Source: an uncultured Mycoplasmatota bacterium (lineage in GTDB: Bacteria; Bacillota_I; Bacilli_A; RF39; UBA660). Taken from it: a stretch of DNA of 64,000 nucleotides. The notes below the pieces were generated by a model. It was not told where the DNA came from. It searched no databases and saw only the letters and a program-made list of their open reading frames with translations. The stretch is from the NCBI GenBank assembly GCA_946494015.1, contig CAMMBL010000001.1, forward strand, positions 1,699-65,698, read 5' to 3'. The position numbers and the translations under genes are program-made. This document shows, piece after piece, positions 5,582 to 51,368 of the stretch (positions are counted from its first letter, which is position 1; every line of letters begins with the position of its first letter).

Positions 5582-6112
5582 ATGAGCCGTATAGGAAATC
5601 GTAAAATTGAAGTTCCCGCAGGAGTAACAGTTACTTTAGAAAATGGAGTTGTAACAGTTACTGGCCCAAAGGGAAGCTTGAGCCAAGTAATGTTAAAAGA
5701 TATTACTATGGAACAAAAAGATAATATAATTACTTTAACAAGAAAAAGCGATGCAGTAAAAGCAATGCATGGTACAATGAATGCACTTCTTCAAAATATG
5801 ATTATAGGTGTAACAAAAGGATATGAAAAAGGGCTAGAAATAGTAGGTGTTGGATACCGTTTCAATGTAAGTGGTAAAAAATTAACTATTAATGCTGGTT
5901 ACTCTCATCCTGTTGAAATAACTATACCTGAAGGGCTTAGTGTAGAAGCACAGTCTAATACAGAAATTACCATTAAAGGTATTGATAAAGCCTTAGTTGG
6001 AGAATTTGCTGCAAATGTTAGAAAAGTACGTCGTCCTGAACCTTACAAAGGTAAAGGTATTCGCTATAAAGATGAACATATAAGACGTAAAGAAGGAAAG
6101 AAAGCTGCTTAA
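5582..6112 (+). CDS. rplF: 50S ribosomal protein L6
   Basis: 176 aa; matches L6. Confidence 0.95.
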   Translation: MSRIGNRKIEVPAGVTVTLENGVVTVTGPKGSLSQVMLKDITMEQKDNIITLTRKSDAVKAMHGTMNALLQNMIIGVTKGYEKGLEIVGVGYRFNVSGKKLTINAGYSHPVEITIPEGLSVEAQSNTEITIKGIDKALVGEFAANVRKVRRPEPYKGKGIRYKDEHIRRKEGKKAA

Positions 6113-43196: not shown

Positions 43197-44372
43197 ATGG
43201 AAAAAGTAATATTAATTAAATATGGAGAATTAACTACTAAAAAAGGTAATCGTAATTTTTTTGTTAAAACTTTAACAAAAAATATAGAAAATAAATTACA
43301 AGATTATAATATTGAAATTGAAAAAGATCTTTCAAGAATGTATATTCATTATAATGAAATAGATGAAAAAGATATTATAAGTAAAATTCATCAAATCTTT
43401 GGAATTCATTCTTATCATATCGCTTATGTTACTAATAGTGATATGGAATCTATTAAAAATGAATTAATAAAAACTATAAAACTTGAAGAATTTAAAACTT
43501 TTAAAGTAGAAGTAAAAAGAAGTGATAAAACATTTCCTAAAACAAGTATGGAACTATCTCCTATATTTGGTAGTATAGTTTTAAAAAATAAGGACAATAT
43601 TAAAGTAGATGTTAATAATCCTGATACTATTATTCATATTGAAATAAGAAAAGATCATACTTATATCTATTATAATGCATATCCTGGTTTAGGAGGATAT
43701 CCTAGTACTATTCAAGGTAAAGGATTATTAATGTTAAGTGGAGGAATAGATTCTCCAGTTGCCGGTTTTCTTGCTATGAAAAGAGGAATAAAAATAGAAG
43801 CAGTATATTTTGAAGCGATACCACATACTAGTTTAGAAGCAAGAGAAAAAGTAATAACTTTAGTAAATAAACTAAAAGTATATACTAATGATATTAAACT
43901 ATATATAGTACCATTTACTAAAATACAAGAAGAAATATATAAAAAAGTTTCTCCTAACTATGTTATTACTATTATGCGCAGAATGATGTATCGTATTATG
44001 GAAAATTTATGTAAAAAAAATAATGCTAAAGTAATAATTAATGGAGAATCAATTGGACAAGTTGCATCTCAAACATTAAATAGTATGTATGTTATAAATA
44101 ATGTAACTAATATACCTGTAATTAGACCAGTAGCATGTTTAGATAAATTAGAAATAATAGATATTGCTAAAAAAATAGATACTTATGAAACAAGTATATT
44201 GCCTTATGAAGATTGTTGTACAGTCTTTGTTCCTAAACATCCTATAATTAATCCAACTTTAGAAGAAACAATAAAAGAGGAAGAAAAAATAGATTATGAG
44301 AAAATTTTACAAGAAACAATAGATAATACTTTTATTTATAAAGAAAAAAATGATTATGAAAATATTCTTTAG
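43197..44372 (+). CDS. thiI: tRNA 4-thiouridine synthase
   Basis: THUMP N-terminus; PP-loop SGGIDSPVA. Confidence 0.92.
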   Translation: MEKVILIKYGELTTKKGNRNFFVKTLTKNIENKLQDYNIEIEKDLSRMYIHYNEIDEKDIISKIHQIFGIHSYHIAYVTNSDMESIKNELIKTIKLEEFKTFKVEVKRSDKTFPKTSMELSPIFGSIVLKNKDNIKVDVNNPDTIIHIEIRKDHTYIYYNAYPGLGGYPSTIQGKGLLMLSGGIDSPVAGFLAMKRGIKIEAVYFEAIPHTSLEAREKVITLVNKLKVYTNDIKLYIVPFTKIQEEIYKKVSPNYVITIMRRMMYRIMENLCKKNNAKVIINGESIGQVASQTLNSMYVINNVTNIPVIRPVACLDKLEIIDIAKKIDTYETSILPYEDCCTVFVPKHPIINPTLEETIKEEEKIDYEKILQETIDNTFIYKEKNDYENIL

Positions 44373-44446
44373 GTAAAAATTGGAAGTAAAAAAAATGTAT
44401 GAAATTTAAAAAAATTCGCATTCTACTAGTGTAGGAGGTGAAACAA

Positions 44447-44662
44447 ATGAACAACAAAATGAACACAGGTTCAATGAAAATGAGAGTTCCTGGTGCTAAA
44501 CAAGCTATCGATAAAATGAAATATGAAATAGCTAATGAATTCGGTGTTAATTTAGGACCAGATGCTACTAGCCGTGCTAACGGTTCAGTTGGTGGTGAAA
44601 TCACTAGACGTTTAGTACAAAACGGATTAAATCAAGTTAGCGGAAGTTATAGTAATAAATAA
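44447..44662 (+). CDS. Small acid-soluble spore protein, alpha/beta type (ATG 44447 after AGGAGGTG)
   Basis: [10 protein letters not shown] and [13 protein letters not shown] signatures. Confidence 0.85.
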
Positions 44663-44674
44663 GTAATATAACTT

Positions 44675-44712
44675 AGTCGATAGGTCATAAATGACCTATC
44701 TTTTTTATATAT
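44675..44712 (+). terminator. Rho-independent terminator
   Basis: GATAGGTCA-taaa-TGACCTATC then TTTTTT. Confidence 0.7.
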
Positions 44713-44856
44713 CTATTTAGATTACATATAAATAAAATTTAGCTTTATCTTTAATGTTATTTTAAGTAAAGAATAAACTTTTTATATAAAAGTACTAGCC
44801 TAGTTAAGAAATATTTGTTATACTATAAATAGTAAAAAAAGATAGGGTGTTAGCGA

Positions 44857-46788
44857 ATGGAAAAGAAATTTTTTAATAAGAGGAAAAAATTTACTAAAGA
44901 AAAAATAGAAGATTATGATTTTAAAGAAATATCTTTAACCAAAATGGCTAAAAGACAATTATTTGTAACTTTACTATCAATATTAGGAGTAACGATAATA
45001 TCCTTAGGGAGTGCCTATGCGGTATTTACATCAATCTCAAAATCAGCAGATTATAATGTAATAAAAGTAGGAACATTAAATATAGATTTTGGAGAAGATG
45101 GAAATAATACAATAGATTTAAGTAATCAATATCCAGTTAGTGATGAAGAAGGACTAACACTAGCGCCATATACATTTACAATAACAAACACAGGAACGCT
45201 AGCAGCAGATTATGAAGTATTTTTACAAGATGATGAAAATATGATAAGTGAAGATAATTGTTCAGATAAACAATTAAACAAAGATTATATAAAATATAAA
45301 TTAGATACAAAAGAACCAGCCATATTATCAAGTATAGCAGCAAGTAATTATAAATTAGCAGAAGGAACCTTACAACCAAGTGGAAGTGTAACCTATGTTT
45401 TATATGTCTGGATAAGAGAAGGAGTAGGAAATGATGTATTAGGAAAACATTATCATGGTAAGATAGTAGTAAATGGAGTAAATAGCAGTGGAGAACCAGC
45501 AAATGAAGTAGTATTGGAAAATATAGGAGAAAATGGAAGTACCTATGATGATGGAACAGATACCTTTATAACAGGAACAGATCCAAATAATTATGTATGG
45601 TATAGTGGGAAGTTATGGAGAGCAGTATCTATTAATAATGAAGCGAAAACAACAAAATTAGTAACGGAGTGGAATATAAGTGCAATTATCTATTCAAGTG
45701 GAAGTACAGCCTTTGAAGGAAGTTATATGGAAGAATGGTTAAATGATACAAGTGTAGATGGCTTCTTAGGTAATTTAAGAGAACCAGAAAAATTTATTGA
45801 AACCAATGCAAAATGGGATGCAACAATGGATTCAACTGATTTGGGTAGTATTCAAAAACCAAAAGGGACAACAATAGTAAACAATGCTGTAGGACTACTA
45901 AATATGTATGAATATCAATCTAGTAATAATGGCGGAACAGCTGGTTATTTAAATAATGGACTTAATTGGATGACTTTAACACCGTATAATACGTCTGACG
46001 TGCGTTACGTCGACTTAGATGGCGGCGCGGACTACTTCACTCCTACTGTCCCAGACGGTGTTCGTCCATCCATAAATCTAAAATCTAGCATTAAAATCGT
46101 AGATGGTGATGGAACGATAGATAATCCATACAGATTAAATGGAGATAATGACACTAATCTTTCAGGAACATTTCTTTCAAGTAGATATAGTGGAGAATAC
46201 ATCCGCTTTGGAAATGATGAAAATAATCTATATAGAATAGTAAGCCATGAAACGGATGGGTTAACTAAAATAGTCAGTGCCCAACCATTAAAGAGTTCTG
46301 GTGAATTTATAAGAAGTGCATTTGGCAGTAATGTAACATTTTCAAGTGCAAATATAATCGGTAATTTTCTAAATGGCGAATACTTAAATAGTTATGTAGA
46401 TAGTAAATATAGAGATATGATAGAAGACGAGACAGTATGGTATCTTGGAACAGTAGGAAATAGTGCATCATATAAATTAGCCAAGTATACAGATGCAACT
46501 GGCACTACATTAACATCAAGTGTAACGACAGCGAAAGTAGGACTTTTGAGAATGGGAGAATTAATGGCGGGACAATTTTCAGCATATGGAAATAATAAAG
46601 AATATTGGTTATTAACACCAAGTGATGCGTCTAACGTGCGTAACGCCGGCAACAATGGCGACGCGAACGACTTCGGTCCGACTTTTGCTTACGGGGTTCG
46701 ACCATCCATAAATCTAAAATCTAACGTCGAGATAACCTCAGGAACAGGAACTGAATCTGATCCGTTCGTTCTGACTCTAGGAAGTTAG
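44857..46788 (+). CDS. DGR target (variable) protein: membrane-anchored surface protein with two tandem C-terminal-type domains, each carrying a variable repeat
   Basis: N-terminal TM (LFVTLLSILGVTIISLGSAYAV). Two duplicated ~50-aa segments (...NTSDVRYVDLDGGADYFTPTVPDGVRPSINLKS... and ...DASNVRNAGNNGDANDFGPTFAYGVRPSINLKS...) correspond to VR1 and VR2. Confidence 0.8.
   Translation: MEKKFFNKRKKFTKEKIEDYDFKEISLTKMAKRQLFVTLLSILGVTIISLGSAYAVFTSISKSADYNVIKVGTLNIDFGEDGNNTIDLSNQYPVSDEEGLTLAPYTFTITNTGTLAADYEVFLQDDENMISEDNCSDKQLNKDYIKYKLDTKEPAILSSIAASNYKLAEGTLQPSGSVTYVLYVWIREGVGNDVLGKHYHGKIVVNGVNSSGEPANEVVLENIGENGSTYDDGTDTFITGTDPNNYVWYSGKLWRAVSINNEAKTTKLVTEWNISAIIYSSGSTAFEGSYMEEWLNDTSVDGFLGNLREPEKFIETNAKWDATMDSTDLGSIQKPKGTTIVNNAVGLLNMYEYQSSNNGGTAGYLNNGLNWMTLTPYNTSDVRYVDLDGGADYFTPTVPDGVRPSINLKSSIKIVDGDGTIDNPYRLNGDNDTNLSGTFLSSRYSGEYIRFGNDENNLYRIVSHETDGLTKIVSAQPLKSSGEFIRSAFGSNVTFSSANIIGNFLNGEYLNSYVDSKYRDMIEDETVWYLGTVGNSASYKLAKYTDATGTTLTSSVTTAKVGLLRMGELMAGQFSAYGNNKEYWLLTPSDASNVRNAGNNGDANDFGPTFAYGVRPSINLKSNVEITSGTGTESDPFVLTLGS
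45989..46095 (+). repeat. DGR variable repeat 1 (more diverged from TR) with the same downstream 22-bp sequence as VR2 (candidate IMH)
   Basis: Aligns to TR; most mismatches fall at TR adenines (AAC codons become GAC/TAC/TTC), with a few non-A differences. Followed by CCATCCATAAATCTAAAATCTA, identical to the sequence after VR2. Confidence 0.5.
46627..46722 (+). repeat. DGR variable repeat 2 with downstream candidate IMH, at the 3' end of the target gene
   Basis: 73-bp core versus TR: 11 mismatches, 9 at TR adenines. TR AAC codons appear as GGC, GAC, TTC, TAC. Followed by CCATCCATAAATCTAAAATCTA. Confidence 0.75.
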
Positions 46789-46789
46789 A

Positions 46790-46830
46790 TGTCAGTAATC
46801 TAGGTAATGTATTTTCTAGATTACTGACTA
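46790..46830 (+). terminator. 13-bp perfect hairpin right after the target stop codon (terminator and/or DGR-associated stem-loop)
   Basis: GTCAGTAATCTAG-gtaatgtattttc-CTAGATTACTGAC. Confidence 0.55.
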
Positions 46831-46883
46831 ATTAAATTTGGCTATAATTAGATTAAATAAATTATAGTAGGGAATTACCATTA

Positions 46884-46968
46884 GTACGTCTAACGTGCGT
46901 AACGTCAACAACAATGGCGACGCGAACAACAACACTCCGACTAATGCTAACGGGGTTCGCCATTTCCT
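46884..46968 (+). repeat. DGR template repeat, adenine-rich at positions variable in the VRs; candidate IMH* follows
   Basis: ACGTCTAACGTGCGTAACGTCAACAACAATGGCGACGCGAACAACAACACTCCGACTAATGCTAACGGGGTTCG followed by CCATTTCCTTTTAAACCTAGCA, which differs from the sequence downstream of the VRs. Confidence 0.72.
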
Positions 46969-47241
46969 TTTAAACCTAGCATTATAGATAAGTCTATATA
47001 GAATAGATAAAAGGAACAGGTAATTTCCTTGTGTTAAAACACTAAAGACTAGATAGATAATAGAATTATAATTACTTATGAAACTATTTATACACTATCT
47101 GACCCTATAAAACTAAAGGAAAGATAAATCCAATAGTTTATGTCAAGTATAATAGTAAATTTATGTAAACTGTATAAATTTACAAATATGCTTGATTTTT
47201 TTTTTGATATGTTAAGGGAAAGATAGGAGAGTGTTAAATTT

Positions 47242-47466
47242 ATGAATAATAGTTTGGTTTATTTTAAACGTAAAGGAGTAATGATTTACGTAAGTAGAAA
47301 TGATAGTTACATTATTAGTTATTTATTAGATAAACCTTATAAAGATACATTCTATATTGAAAGAACTTCAATGAATAAGTTAATATCTTTACTTAATAAA
47401 TGCCATATTAATTATTATTATAATAATGTGTTATCTTTAAAGATAATAAATATTCTAAGTATCTAG
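47242..47466 (+). CDS. Small hypothetical ORF inside the DGR cassette (may be non-coding spacer)
   Basis: ORF only. Confidence 0.25.
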   Translation: MNNSLVYFKRKGVMIYVSRNDSYIISYLLDKPYKDTFYIERTSMNKLISLLNKCHINYYYNNVLSLKIINILSI

Positions 47467-47571
47467 AATATGGTAAATTAGTCTTTAGAATAGATAAATT
47501 ATCTACTAACTTAAAGAATTGTTTATACCTAGATAATATAGAAGAAATTATTTCTAAGATGGAGAAATTCT

Positions 47572-47913
47572 ATGAGTAATTTTTTCCTTGAAAATAAAAT
47601 TAAAGAAATAAATATAATTACTGATAAAATAATTTTAAATATTAATAATAAATATAAAACTACTAAGAATAGTATTATAGATTCTAATTATAAATTACTT
47701 TATTATTTGTATTATACTAATACTTTAGAAAAACCTAAAAGAATCTATATTCAAAGAAAAATGTTAGTAGAAGTTAAATTGTTAGATTATTACTATTATA
47801 AGATTTATACTTATAAAGAAATATCTAAAGATAAGTATATATCTATAAGTAAGAAATATATTACTATTACTAAATTAATATATGGATGGATTAAAAGTGA
47901 AAGTAGAGTTTAG
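47572..47913 (+). CDS. Candidate DGR accessory variability determinant (Avd-like, 113 aa)
   Basis: Size, position just upstream of and overlapping the RT, and a YYLYY...LEKPKRIYIQRKML segment resembling the Avd YLYP...IPRK...R..FL region. Confidence 0.4.
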   Translation: MSNFFLENKIKEINIITDKIILNINNKYKTTKNSIIDSNYKLLYYLYYTNTLEKPKRIYIQRKMLVEVKLLDYYYYKIYTYKEISKDKYISISKKYITITKLIYGWIKSESRV

Positions 47914-48835
47914 CGATATAGAAGATGCTTACTTAAAGATAAGAAAATCTATTAGAAATAAGAAAAATTTATATCGCTTTGAAAAGAATTATTATAGTAA
48001 TTGTAATATCTTAGTAGATAAAATTAATAATGGTAATTATATCTATAGTAATTATCATATCTTTACTATAATAGAGAAAAAGATGCGACTTATTATGAGT
48101 AGTACTTTAGAAGATAAAATAGTTAATCATGTTATCTGTAATAAAATTTTACTACCTTTAGATAAATACTTAATAGATAGTAATTGTGCTACTAGAATTG
48201 GTAGAGGTACTTCTTATGCTAGAAAATTATTAGATAAGTATCTTGTTAAGATTAAAAATAAATCTAATACTTTCTATATCCTTAAATTTGATTTTAGTAA
48301 GTACTTTTATAATATTAATCATAAAGTATTACTTAAAAAGTTAAGTAAATACTTAAATAATGAAGATTTATTATTAATTAAAGATATTTTAAATACTACT
48401 AATTATGATTATATTAATAATACTATAGATAAATTAAGAATAAATACTTTCTATAATAAAGATACTGGCTTACCTATAGGTAATTATACTTCTCAGTTTC
48501 TTGCAGTGTTTTATCTTAATGACTTAGATCACTATATTAAAGAAAAATTAGGCTGTAAATACTATATTAGATATATGGATGATGGTATTATTATAGATAG
48601 TAATAAAGAAAGACTAAAAGATATTTTAAAAATATTAGAAACTATTATTAAAGATGAATATCTATTAGAATTTAATAATAAGACTAAAATATATAAAAGT
48701 ACAGAAGGGTTTACTTTTCTAGGTATCAATTATAAAGTTAAAAATAATAAGATTTATAGAAAAATAATTAGTAAGACTAGAAAAAGATTAGTTAAGAAGA
48801 ATATTAAATATTATTTAAAATACGAAAAATTATAA
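47882..48835 (+). CDS. DGR reverse transcriptase
   Basis: RT motifs KKMRLIMSSTLEDKIVNHV, RIGRGTSYA, ILKFDFSKYFYNINH, catalytic YIRYMDDGII (YxDD); the DGR-specific IGNYTSQ (IGxxxSQ) motif; ~317 aa. Confidence 0.85.
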   Translation: MDGLKVKVEFSDIEDAYLKIRKSIRNKKNLYRFEKNYYSNCNILVDKINNGNYIYSNYHIFTIIEKKMRLIMSSTLEDKIVNHVICNKILLPLDKYLIDSNCATRIGRGTSYARKLLDKYLVKIKNKSNTFYILKFDFSKYFYNINHKVLLKKLSKYLNNEDLLLIKDILNTTNYDYINNTIDKLRINTFYNKDTGLPIGNYTSQFLAVFYLNDLDHYIKEKLGCKYYIRYMDDGIIIDSNKERLKDILKILETIIKDEYLLEFNNKTKIYKSTEGFTFLGINYKVKNNKIYRKIISKTRKRLVKKNIKYYLKYEKL

Positions 48836-48886
48836 TTTGTTCTTTTCTAATTATTATTATATAATAAATAAAAGGAGAGATGATTT

Positions 48887-50071
48887 ATGCTATTATTAGC
48901 TGTTAATTCTGGTAGTAGTACTTTAAAATTTAGATTATATGAGATGCCAGAAGAAAAAGTTATTACTAAAGGAAGTTTTGAACGGATTGGCTCTGTTGAT
49001 AGTGATTATACTATTAGAATTAATAATGAAAAAATATATGTAAAAAAAGAAATTAAAACTCATAAAGACGCTGTTGATATTTTATTAACAGAACTTGTGG
49101 AAAAAAATATTGTTAAAAGTCTTGATAATATTAAAGCAGTAGGACATAGAATAGTCCATGGAGGTTCACTATATTCTCATTCTGTTATTATTACTGATAG
49201 AGTAATTAATGAACTTGAAAATATAGAAGATTTAGCTCCTTTACATAATCCCGCTGCTATTAGTGGAATTAAAGCTTTTATTGAAGAAATACCTAGTGCT
49301 ACTATGGTTGCTTGTTTTGATACTGCTTTTCATCAAACTATTAAAGAAAAAGATTTTTTATATCCAGTTCCTTATGAATGGTATGTAAAATATGGTGTTA
49401 GAAAATATGGTTTTCATGGTTTGTCACATCAATATATAACTAATAAAATGAAAGGTATAATTGGTTTTGATGGTAATTTAATTATTTGTCATATAGGTAA
49501 TGGTGCAAGCATTACGGCTGTAAAAGAAGGAATATGTATTGATACTTCTATGGGATTTACTCCTAATGCTGGTATTATGATGGGAACTAGAAGTGGTGAT
49601 ATTGATTATAGTCTTATTGGTTATATTATGAAAAAAACAGGTTTATCATATACTGATATAGATACAATATTAAATAAAAAAAGTGGTCTTGAAGGTATTG
49701 CTGGTATGAGTGATTTACGAGATATAGATAGAGCTTATCTTGCTAAAGAAAATAAAGTAATACTTGCTATAGATATGTATACAGAACGTATTGCTGAATA
49801 TATTGCTAAATACTTCTTAAAGCTTGGTAAAGTAGATGGTATTGTATTTACAGCCGGAGGAGGAGAAAATGATCCTATTATTAGAAAAGAAGTTCTTAAT
49901 AAATTAAAACCTTTAGGAGTAGAACTTGATGAGAAATTAAATGAAGAAACTATTGTTAGAAAAGATAAAGAAGGACTTATTACTACTAAAGATTCATCTA
50001 TTGCAAGTTATGTCTTATCAACTGATGAAGAATTAGTAATTGCTAGAGATACTTATAATTTATCTAAGTAA
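48887..50071 (+). CDS. ackA: Acetate kinase (paralog 1)
   Basis: N-terminal LAVNSGSSTLKF; acetokinase family motifs. Confidence 0.88.
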   Translation: MLLLAVNSGSSTLKFRLYEMPEEKVITKGSFERIGSVDSDYTIRINNEKIYVKKEIKTHKDAVDILLTELVEKNIVKSLDNIKAVGHRIVHGGSLYSHSVIITDRVINELENIEDLAPLHNPAAISGIKAFIEEIPSATMVACFDTAFHQTIKEKDFLYPVPYEWYVKYGVRKYGFHGLSHQYITNKMKGIIGFDGNLIICHIGNGASITAVKEGICIDTSMGFTPNAGIMMGTRSGDIDYSLIGYIMKKTGLSYTDIDTILNKKSGLEGIAGMSDLRDIDRAYLAKENKVILAIDMYTERIAEYIAKYFLKLGKVDGIVFTAGGGENDPIIRKEVLNKLKPLGVELDEKLNEETIVRKDKEGLITTKDSSIASYVLSTDEELVIARDTYNLSK

Positions 50072-50074
50072 TAA

Positions 50075-50106
50075 AATAACTTGCTAAAAGCAAGTTGTTT
50101 TATTTT
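50075..50106 (+). terminator. Rho-independent terminator
   Basis: AACTTGCT-aaaa-GCAAGTT then TTTTATTTT. Confidence 0.65.
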
Positions 50107-50192
50107 AAATAATACCTTCTTATCAACTTTCTTGCCTAATACTTTGAAAATATAGTATAATACTAATAGATTTAAAGAAAGAAGGAATAATT

Positions 50193-51368
50193 ATGAAAAT
50201 AATGTCTGTTAATGCTGGAAGTAGTTCATTAAAATTTAGTCTATTTAATATGGATCAAAAAGAAGTAATTGCTTCTGGTTATTTTGAACGTGTAGGATTA
50301 GAAGGTAGTTTTTATACAATTAAATATAATGGAGATAAAATAAAAGAAGAAGTAGAAATGCCAAATCATACAGTAGCAGTTGAAGTAATGTTAGATCGTT
50401 TAATAACTTTAGGTATTATTAAATCTTTAGAGGAAATAGATGGAATTGGACATAGAATTGTTCATGGCTATACTTATGATCATTCAGTTATTATTACTGA
50501 TAAAGTAATAGAAGATATCAAATCATATGCTGATTTCGCTCCTTTACATAATCCCGCTCATATTCTAGGTATAGAAGCTTGTAAAAAATCATTACCTAAT
50601 GTTCCTATGGTAGCAGTTTTTGATACTGCTTTCCATCAAACTATGCCAAAAGAAAACTATATATATCCAGTTCCTTACAGTTGGTATGAAAATTATGGAG
50701 TACGTAAATATGGTGCTCATGGAACTAGTCATAAATATATTTCTAAACGCTTAAGTGAAATTATGAATACTAAAGATTTAAAAGTAATAGTATGTCATTT
50801 AGGAAGTGGTTGTTCTTTAAGTGCCATTAAAAATGGTATTTGTCTTGATACTTCTATGGGCTTTACTCCTTTAGCTGGTGTTATGATGGGAACTAGAAGT
50901 GGTGATGTAGATCCTTCTATTATTCCTTATGTAATGGAAAAAGAAGGCTTAAATGCTAAAGAAGTAGTTGATATGTTAAATAAAAAATCAGGACTTTTAG
51001 GAGTTAGTGAAAAATATAGTGATTACCGTGATATTAGAAAAGCTATGGAAGAAGGCGATGAACAAGCTATTTTAGCTAATAAAATATTTGTTAATACTGT
51101 AGTAAAATATATTGCTAATTATTATGTAGAACTTGAAGGAATTGATGCTTTAGTATTTACAGCTGGCTTAGGAGAAAATAGTTCCCCAGCTCGTCATGAT
51201 ATCGTTTCTAAATTAGGTATATTAGGTATAAGTATTGATGAAGAAAAAAATAATATAACAGGAGAAGAAGTAGAGCTTACTGGAAAAGATTCTAAAGTTA
51301 AAGTTTATGCTATTCCAACTAATGAAGAATTAATGATTGCTCTTGAAACTTTAAATTTAATTAGATAG
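50193..51368 (+). CDS. ackA: Acetate kinase (paralog 2)
   Basis: MSVNAGSSSLKF; acetokinase family. Confidence 0.88.
   Translation: MKIMSVNAGSSSLKFSLFNMDQKEVIASGYFERVGLEGSFYTIKYNGDKIKEEVEMPNHTVAVEVMLDRLITLGIIKSLEEIDGIGHRIVHGYTYDHSVIITDKVIEDIKSYADFAPLHNPAHILGIEACKKSLPNVPMVAVFDTAFHQTMPKENYIYPVPYSWYENYGVRKYGAHGTSHKYISKRLSEIMNTKDLKVIVCHLGSGCSLSAIKNGICLDTSMGFTPLAGVMMGTRSGDVDPSIIPYVMEKEGLNAKEVVDMLNKKSGLLGVSEKYSDYRDIRKAMEEGDEQAILANKIFVNTVVKYIANYYVELEGIDALVFTAGLGENSSPARHDIVSKLGILGISIDEEKNNITGEEVELTGKDSKVKVYAIPTNEELMIALETLNLIR

Follow-up and report, generated by a model that had tools for sequence, protein, structure and literature searches.

The prototype diversity-generating retroelement (DGR), the Mtd/TR/Avd/bRT element of Bordetella phage BPP-1, transfers sequence in an adenine-specific manner from a template repeat (TR) to a single variable repeat (VR) that terminates a lectin-like domain encoded by a tail-fibre gene of the phage. 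The GC-rich end of this VR is followed by an initiation of mutagenic homing (IMH) sequence that is unlike its counterpart beside the TR (IMH*), a structured spacer RNA lies 3′ of the TR, and a small Avd-type gene stands beside the reverse transcriptase (RT) gene. Both the occurrence of several VRs per open reading frame (ORF) and the use of DUF6273 as a DGR scaffold are already published: one target with three tandem FGE-sulfatase domains is documented (PMC3521204; PMC5758913), VRs overlapping one ORF were reported for 31 of 948 DGRs (PMC6642488), a 2024 survey contains four targets with two VRs (PMC11661182), and a C-type-lectin-like scaffold of this kind is known from DGRs of gut phages (DUF6273, PMC10743442). 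Here, we analyzed a 64,000-nt stretch (hereafter the window) of contig CAMMBL010000001.1 (positions 1,699 to 65,698) from an uncultured Mycoplasmatota bacterium (GenBank assembly GCA_946494015.1), in which an earlier note, made from the sequence of the window, had recognized a DGR target gene bearing two VRs, VR1 and VR2. The evidence makes it probable that this is a chromosomal DGR whose single TR serves both VRs, that both VRs are active in relatives, and that in this genome the process has stopped or become very rare.

The arrangement in the window parallels that of the BPP-1 element with respect to adenine-specific transfer, the position of the VR at the end of a presumably lectin-like domain, the GC-rich VR end followed by an IMH-like sequence that the TR does not share, the structured RNA 3′ of the TR, and the small, putatively Avd-type gene beside the RT gene. 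It differs from that element in having two VRs in one chromosomal gene, so that the IMH of VR1 and that of VR2 must both be coding, as has been pointed out for internal VRs (PMC5758913). It also differs in carrying an extra 112-aa ORF and in the placement of the TR between the target and the accessory genes, as what appears to be a promoter-to-terminator unit of its own. The target of Marichromatium purpuratum 984, in which each of the three FGE-sulfatase domains has a VR, likewise acquired several VRs per ORF by tandem domain duplication and relies on one TR (PMC3521204; PMC5758913). However, it is a single example whose expression has been questioned and it is built on another scaffold, whereas hundreds of genes retain the two-VR design on DUF6273 described here, and comparison of strains shows that both sites are rewritten. 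In gut phages, the DUF6273 targets (tentaclins and Target2 proteins, PMC10743442; those of Faecalibacterium prophages, PMC11792537) bind receptors for the phage and contain a single VR per protein, unlike the putative cellular surface protein with two DUF6273 copies found here. Chromosomal DGRs with multiple or distant targets, Treponema denticola TvpA among them (PMC4891356), resemble the present system in that cellular surface proteins are diversified and one RT acts on several VRs, some of them in trans, but there one TR serves separate genes, whereas here every paralogous gene contains two VRs, in most cases with a TR copy of its own next to it. The suggestion in the earlier note that two diversified modules fed from one TR are uncommon is thus right as to rarity, although the published cases cited above show that the design is not new. 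What is less ordinary lies at the level of the family, in which paralogues have multiplied to very large numbers, TR modules are private, and RTs act in trans.

VR1, VR2, and the TR (coordinates in Table 1) were recovered by a repeat search as a three-copy direct repeat with a 73-nt core (45992-46064, 46628-46700, and 46887-46959, respectively). This confirms the internal duplication proposed previously, in which residues ~380 to 415 and ~590 to 625 of the target both align to the single TR. The two VRs are spaced 636 bp apart within one ORF, each forms the end of its DUF6273 domain, and the TR lies ~100 nt past the stop codon. Over the 73-nt core, VR1 departs from the TR at 14 of 23 adenines and at 6 of 50 non-adenines (Fisher P = 3e-5); in VR2, changes are found at 9 of the 23 adenines and 2 of the 50 non-adenines (Fisher P = 3e-4). 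The description of VR1 as differing mostly at TR adenines but also at several other sites is therefore accurate, with the correction that VR2 has non-adenine changes too; the adenine bias in the window is not exclusive, the non-adenine differences amounting to ~6 to 7 in VR1 and ~2 to 3 in VR2. The larger number in VR1 is also apparent because a TR pattern in which every A is replaced by N, searched with up to 3 mismatches, finds only the TR itself and VR2. In VR1, four to five of seven such differences are synonymous third-position changes (CCG>CCT, GGG>GGT, and CGC>CGT, plus the third bases of GTC and CCA).

To place these differences in the context of the family, the target protein was used in a homologue search that returned more than 3000 relatives; the top 120 were 58 to 76% identical and of equal length, and 116 of them were aligned. 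Across these 116 homologues, the 22 columns with the highest entropy anywhere in the protein coincide exactly with the codons for which the TR has AAY (or GAC), i.e., codons 381, 384, 386-388, 390, 392-394, 398, and 400 in VR1 and codons 593, 596, 598-600, 602, 604-606, 610, and 612 in VR2. The hypervariable codons are homologous between the two domains and show a residue spectrum (N/S/Y/D/G/T) expected from NNC. One extra hypervariable codon per domain was seen nine codons upstream of each VR (codon 370, 45964-45966, and codon 582, 46600-46602; entropy of 2.6 and 2.9 bits); its Y/S/N/T/D/I spectrum is DGR-like, yet it lies outside detectable TR homology.

Each VR was then compared with the TR of its own locus, which was located in 13 related loci (loci and contigs are cited by L numbers). 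A blastn-short search with the TR of the window missed most TR/VR pairs and was replaced by codon-anchored ungapped and gapped alignments. Close cassettes found in a search of metagenome contigs with the RT were limited to L087, L088, and L103, the remaining loci having RTs that are 39 to 48% identical and other targets. Seven related cassettes have at most one non-adenine mismatch per VR with respect to their own TR. For six of these, the adenine/non-adenine mismatches in VR1 and VR2 are 14/0 and 11/1 (L004), 11/0 and 8/1 (L008), 17/1 and 10/0 (L024), 16/1 and 9/0 (L029), 13/0 and 11/0 (L065), and 9/0 and 12/0 (L088, a metagenome contig). The seventh, L167/L168, represents two near-identical strains of the orthologous locus from two samples, with the same synteny from thiI to the small acid-soluble spore protein (SASP) gene as in the window. 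The TRs of these two strains are identical. Of their 38 differences over 2224 nt, VR1 accounts for 15, VR2 and its immediate vicinity for 10, and the N-terminal region for 13, with none in the 570 nt between the VRs. All 15 differences in VR1 and all 9 in-core differences in VR2 fall at TR adenines, and none of the four VRs has a non-adenine mismatch to the TR. The variation is thus fully restricted to adenines between L167 and L168, a point that the earlier note had raised for VR1, and ongoing diversification, in the form of strain differences at TR adenines, is seen at this orthologous locus and not in the lineage of the window. Of 22 homologue pairs with at most 3% difference outside the VRs, 20 show changes in VR1 and 16 in VR2, and the changes in the two repeats are separable (e.g., 12/0, 13/0, and 1/12 for VR1/VR2). 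Because close pairs change either VR alone and the L167/L168 differences are confined to adenines, sequence comparison indicates that both VRs are genuine recipients of one TR and are rewritten independently in these relatives. The idea that VR1 is generally the weaker recipient, which stemmed from its more numerous non-adenine mismatches in decaying cassettes, was rejected as a general rule, since in comparisons of close strains VR1 is changed no less frequently than VR2. As a separate observation, VR2 of L045 (5609-5686) is a mosaic with respect to its own TR (5872-5949): in the 3′ 57 nt, nearly all differences from this 78-nt-type TR are at A sites, the 5′ 21 nt resemble the 75-nt TR type, and the whole fits partial retrohoming with an internal 5′ crossover.

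We next considered the 3′ flanks of the repeats. The 22-mer that follows both VRs, CCATCCATAAATCTAAAATCTA, is present at exactly two sites in the window, with none more even at 3 mismatches (0 expected from 100 shuffles). The TR lacks CCATCCATAAATCTAAAATCTA at its 3′ side and has its own conserved flank, CATTTCCTTTTAAACCTAGCAT; in all cassettes the TR flank is CATTTCCTTTTAAACCTAG. An RP[S/A/T]xNLK[S/T] motif occurs twice in one ORF at 61 of 82 related loci, and full identity of the two VR flanks over 21 to 22 nt is found in only 6 of these 61 genes, the family-wide part being the core AATCTAAAATCT. Since P-S-I-N-L-K-S is near-invariant in the family, protein conservation could explain some of the flank identity. 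By our own arithmetic, seven identical codons would be expected from background codon frequencies in ~0.4% of cases; 21-nt identity was observed in only 6 of 61 genes. For the core, however, codon usage speaks against protein conservation as the sole explanation. The Leu of the flank is encoded by CTA in 57/61 genes for VR1 and 53/61 for VR2 (110/122 together), and the last Ser by TCT in 60/61 and 53/61 (113/122 together), compared to 16% CTA and 15% TCT elsewhere in the same genes; the Lys is AAA in 60/61 genes at either VR, compared to 68% elsewhere. Because CTA and TCT are fixed against codon usage, the core flank codons are constrained as nucleotide sequence to an extent well above the requirements of the protein. 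The sequence pattern of IMH versus IMH* is thereby present, as the VR flanks share AATCTAAAATCT and the TR flank CATTTCCTTTTAAACCTAG differs, and we regard the shared 3′ flank of the VRs as a reasonable candidate IMH. The identical 22-bp candidate IMH of the earlier note accordingly stands for the window, where the duplicate is exact; across the 61 related genes, synonymous sites of the core are fixed, but full identity of the flanks is confined to a minority.

To evaluate the state of the DGR in the lineage of the window itself, contigs L081 to L086 from six other metagenome assemblies, with 0 to 15 substitutions each relative to the window, were compared. The exact target protein is present on contigs of several independent metagenome assemblies, and VR1 is identical in all five contigs that span it and VR2 in all six, despite single-nucleotide polymorphisms (SNPs) elsewhere. 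L081 and L082 are identical to the window, L085 has 2 SNPs, and L083 has 8 SNPs in 3.3 kb, six of which are synonymous changes within the N-terminal half of the target protein. In L084, the target and the TR agree with the window, followed by 12 differences at 47035-47141 and no alignment past 47146, and the 591-nt contig L086, compared over 46370-46914, has 15 substitutions in 545 nt, two of them in the TR. L086 is identical to the window through VR2, all 15 substitutions falling in the last 165 nt (target C-terminal tail, hairpin region, and TR, where they are 46891 T>A and 46906 C>T), which could reflect recombination with a paralogous cassette or an assembly chimera. In active relatives, pairs with 2 to 6 amino acid differences outside the VRs show ~10 differences per VR.

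The mismatches to the TR point in the same direction. Intact cassettes have 0 to 1 non-adenine mismatches, compared to the numbers given above for the window, and because the non-adenine changes of the window are mostly synonymous, those of VR1 at third positions, they would represent ordinary drift after the last homing and not RT error. The fully intact cassettes L008, L024, L088, and L168 are clean in their VRs, whereas broken cassettes are rich in non-adenine mismatches; these are the window and L001, in which the accessory ORF is broken, L010, with a frameshifted RT, and L045, with degraded Avd and RT. None of the imperfect related cassettes has fewer non-adenine mismatches in VR1 than in VR2. 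In the window, the conserved accessory ORF is split by a 1-nt deletion near 47430 (GTTGTT to GTGTT), and the lesion is also present in L081 and L083, the two other contigs reaching the site; according to tblastn and translations, the ORF is intact in L002, L008, L010, L024, L045, L088, and L168. We conclude with moderate confidence, from these sequences, that in this lineage the DGR is dormant, dead, or very rarely working and that the last writing of VR1 preceded that of VR2. Of the two options left in the earlier note for VR1, an older, decaying target is favored by its excess of non-adenine mismatches over VR2, and a still active one is disfavored for this genome by the invariance of the VRs across contigs, the non-adenine changes, and the accessory ORF frameshift. 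The pattern that the note had named as the mark of a fossil VR1, i.e., VR1 frozen with VR2 varying, was not observed, since both are frozen here and both vary in relatives.

In the mechanism that we propose, TR RNA would be converted into complementary DNA (cDNA) with random bases opposite adenines, and this cDNA would replace either VR1 or VR2 in separate retrohoming events. The outcome would be two independently variable binding surfaces of ~1.5e14 sequences each (our own arithmetic, 15^10 x 4^4). In this genome, VR1 would have been written for the last time longer ago than VR2, both would now be drifting by point mutation, and the accessory ORF frameshift is a candidate cause of the stop. 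Several points weigh against this explanation. The RT and the Avd-like gene look intact in the window. The shifted frame of the accessory ORF holds T_TTA_AAG (47436-47442), a classic -1 slippery heptamer that would restore the conserved downstream frame, so that some full-length accessory product may still arise, and the 112-aa ORF may be dispensable for retrohoming. Assemblies are consensus only, with rare variants invisible, and the compared strains are so close (≤0.3% divergence) that the VRs may simply not have changed yet. The RT acts in trans on orphan TR modules (L065, see below), and a second cassette beyond the window could serve this locus. Finally, the C-type-lectin fold of the target domains rests on the Pfam assignment and PMC10743442.

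Some of these points would fit an element that is still fully active on both VRs, their identity among strains resulting from strong selection for one ligand-binding allele, tight regulation of retrohoming, or very recent common ancestry and the accessory ORF being frameshift-expressed or dispensable. We consider this unlikely, albeit worth keeping in mind: no damage is seen in the RT, the Avd-like gene, the TR, the structured RNA, or either IMH-like flank, T_TTA_AAG is correctly placed for frame restoration, and some close pairs of active relatives do have identical VRs (P0022/P0027 and P0012/P0013), but the non-adenine mismatches exceed those of the intact cassettes of the clade in both VRs, their mostly synonymous nature is the pattern of drift after a last homing, and the VRs are unchanged across strains with 2 to 15 other differences in the same few kilobases. 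It is much more improbable that only VR2 is a recipient in this genome and that VR1 is a fossil of the domain duplication that the machinery does not recognize. VR1 has about three times the non-adenine mismatches of VR2, and its count is never below that of VR2 in the imperfect related cassettes; against this, VR2 is equally invariant across strains and also has non-adenine changes, VR1 retains a complete IMH-like flank identical to that of VR2, and in relatives VR1 is rewritten no less frequently than VR2. Ordinary duplication of a domain within the gene accompanied by a chance or recombination-derived noncoding copy can practically be dismissed, as it has in its favor only that the two domains are true paralogues, whereas an RT with DGR motifs lies 0.9 kb downstream, the mismatches are adenine-biased, and the strain differences at the orthologous locus are adenine-only.

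The predicted target protein contains an N-terminal hydrophobic segment (residues ~34-57), a beta-sandwich (~100-210), and two tandem DUF6273 domains, and we propose that it is a secreted or membrane-anchored surface protein. Pfam DUF6273 scores 37.4 bits (cutoff, 23.5) over two stretches of the target, whose two halves share 41% identity over 99 aa, and sequence alignment identifies the two domains as true paralogues. A full-length AlphaFold2 (AF2) model has a predicted local distance difference test (pLDDT) value of 72 overall and 80 to 94 inside the domains. Foldseek matched this model to predicted viral DUF6273 proteins with E values down to 1e-12 and returned no match in the PDB at E ≤ 0.001, the top entries there being Ig-like chaperones, apparently aligned on the N-terminal beta-sandwich. 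An AlphaFold model of domain 2 alone, based on an 18-sequence alignment, was discarded (pLDDT of 35), and a PDB profile search with domain 2 gave no match. From the Pfam assignment and the published description (PMC10743442), the DUF6273 domains are presumably C-type-lectin-like. In addition, residues ~27-207 of the target (anchor and beta-sandwich) share 26 to 33% identity with proteins upstream of more distant DGR RTs at metagenome loci L120, L145, L153, L158-L160, and L163 (RTs ~40% identical). The C-terminal parts of these proteins differ, pointing to a shared display stalk on which variable heads can be exchanged.

Table 1. Features of the two-VR DGR cassette (coordinates refer to the window)
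Feature	Coordinates	Strand	Description
DGR target gene	44857..46788	+	Uninterrupted ORF, 643 aa
DUF6273 domain 1	45499..46092	+	Residues ~215-412; approximate boundaries (Pfam, half-versus-half alignment, AF2)
VR1	45991..46065	+	75 nt, codons 379-403; 73% identity to TR
IMH-like flank of VR1	46066..46087	+	22-mer CCATCCATAAATCTAAAATCTA, encodes PSINLKS
DUF6273 domain 2	46138..46731	+	Residues ~428-625; approximate boundaries (Pfam, half-versus-half alignment, AF2)
VR2	46627..46701	+	75 nt, codons 591-615; 85% identity to TR
IMH-like flank of VR2	46702..46723	+	Exact copy of VR1 flank CCATCCATAAATCTAAAATCTA
Hairpin	46791..46828	+	Directly past target stop codon; 13-bp stem, 12-nt loop
-10-like box GGCTATAAT	46840..46848	+	~38 nt before TR; conserved in 13/14 cassettes
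TR	46886..46960	+	75 nt, 25 codons, 10 of them AAY; single template
Structured RNA 3′ of TR	46961..47110	+	Begins with IMH*-like flank CATTTCCTTTTAAACCTAGCAT; outer stem 46964-46972 pairs with 47008-47016
AT-rich hairpin and T-run	47143..47206	+	Inverted repeat with 22-nt arms, 86% complementary, then T10
Conserved accessory ORF	47242..47579	+	112 aa in relatives; frame-1 part 47242-47466 (74 aa), frame-3 part 47430-47579
Avd-like accessory gene	47572..47913	+	113 aa; overlaps RT start
DGR-type reverse transcriptase	47882..48835	+	317 aa; RVT_1 at E = 1e-20

The TR seems to be embedded in an RNA unit of its own. By direct reading of the sequences, the hairpin that precedes this unit has four stem variants across cassettes, all still complementary, and a conserved 12-nt loop, GNAATGTATTT. 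Such a hairpin was also seen directly past the target stop codon in L001, L004, L008, L010, L033, L045, and L088; possible roles are those of a terminator, of a cruciform that functions in homing, or of a component of the TR promoter. The conserved box GGCTATAAT is a candidate promoter element for the TR RNA, judging from its sequence and position; a generic promoter and terminator scan gave sites no more numerous than in shuffled sequence. The ~150-nt stretch 3′ of the TR is ~90% identical at the nucleotide level across cassettes, and RNAalifold predicted 46 pairs in it, 10 of which show compensatory changes. The conserved flank of the TR is part of a covarying stem of this RNA, and an Rfam scan of 44000-49500 yielded no match. 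The AT-rich hairpin with its T-run is likely the terminator of the unit, and the same element also closes the orphan TR module of L065.

The order of the cassette is target, hairpin, TR RNA gene, 112-aa accessory ORF, avd-like gene, and RT. MSL (MutS-like) cassettes (architecture D, PMC5758913), which include the Legionella DGR, are comparable in that a small extra ORF (112 to 283 aa there and 112 aa here) is found with avd between the TR and the RT. The 112-aa ORF is nonetheless at most a tentative counterpart of this MutS-like accessory gene, since it fits in size and position but shows no MutS similarity with Pfam at E ≤ 1 or in a PDB profile search at E ≤ 10, and it differs further in being frameshifted in the window. 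The gene directly upstream of the RT in all related cassettes gives weak bAvd-like Pfam matches (E = 0.08 and 0.023, below cutoff); its size, position, and conservation fit Avd. The combination of RVT_1 with the motifs [LIV]GxxxSQ and YxDD defines DGR RTs. In the window, IGNYTSQ (residues 199-205) and YMDD (231-234) are intact, and they are invariant in an alignment with four related RTs; the RT is 75 to 88% identical to the RTs of cassettes with clean VRs. The same two motifs are used by DiGReF (PMC3521204). The neighboring genes are housekeeping genes (ligA, cysteine desulfurase, thiI, the SASP gene, and two acetate kinases), and the DGR is therefore considered chromosomal and not part of a phage. 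The SASP gene (PF00269; 44438-44662) lies directly upstream of the target, in a lineage labelled Tenericutes in some records, and the two acetate kinase genes are arranged in tandem (48887-51368) directly downstream of the RT.

The two-domain family comprises at least 564 loci in species-representative genomes, all from uncultured gut Bacilli or “Tenericutes” metagenome-assembled genomes (MAGs), e.g., Candidatus Onthousia, with eight or more paralogues in single MAGs of ~1.5 Mb. Loci L004, L029, L035, L043, L046, L053, L058, and L062 all belong to MAG BRZ_PQ__bin74, where at least two copies bear a TR (L004 and L029), and L015, L031, L033, L037, and L056 belong to OZ006970.1. Many contigs break directly past the TR module, as expected for a repeated element. 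Orphan TR modules consisting of hairpin, -10 box, TR, structured RNA, and terminator stand beside two-VR targets in L065 (6024-6330) and L033 (5945-6230), without avd or RT nearby and with a DedA-like gene next. Since the VRs of L065 differ from this orphan TR only at adenines (13/0 and 11/0), an RT encoded elsewhere must act on it in trans. TR remnants that are truncated or deleted but keep the 5′ half were seen ~100 nt past the target stop codon in L005, L015, L026, L027, L035, L038, L044, L063, L064, and L077; in L015 and L064, the break in the TR is followed by the palindrome AATTATAAGACATGTCTTATAATT, and L015 retains only the last 81 codons of an RT. We tentatively raise the possibility, to which we give somewhat less than even weight, that the cassette in the window is one node of a distributed hypermutation network in small-genome (~1.5 Mb) uncultured gut Bacilli (Candidatus Onthousia and relatives), with many two-VR paralogues per genome, mostly private TR RNA genes, and only one or a few loci supplying RT, Avd, and the 112-aa protein in trans. 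Such a network, if it exists, would account for the mosaic VRs as well as for TR modules that are orphaned or survive as truncated remnants, and it would provide 2 x N variable sites that can be programmed independently, every one from a template of its own.

For this genome, the locus is a recognizable DGR that is probably quiet by now. In the family, two independently rewritten, presumably lectin-like surfaces square the theoretical repertoire, from ~1e14 to ~1e28, and two such surfaces per protein would permit bivalent or two-ligand recognition. An IMH that is coding twice over in each gene constrains models of DGR target recognition, and the intact, broken, and orphan cassettes constitute a natural series on the cis and trans parts needed for retrohoming, including the 112-aa ORF.

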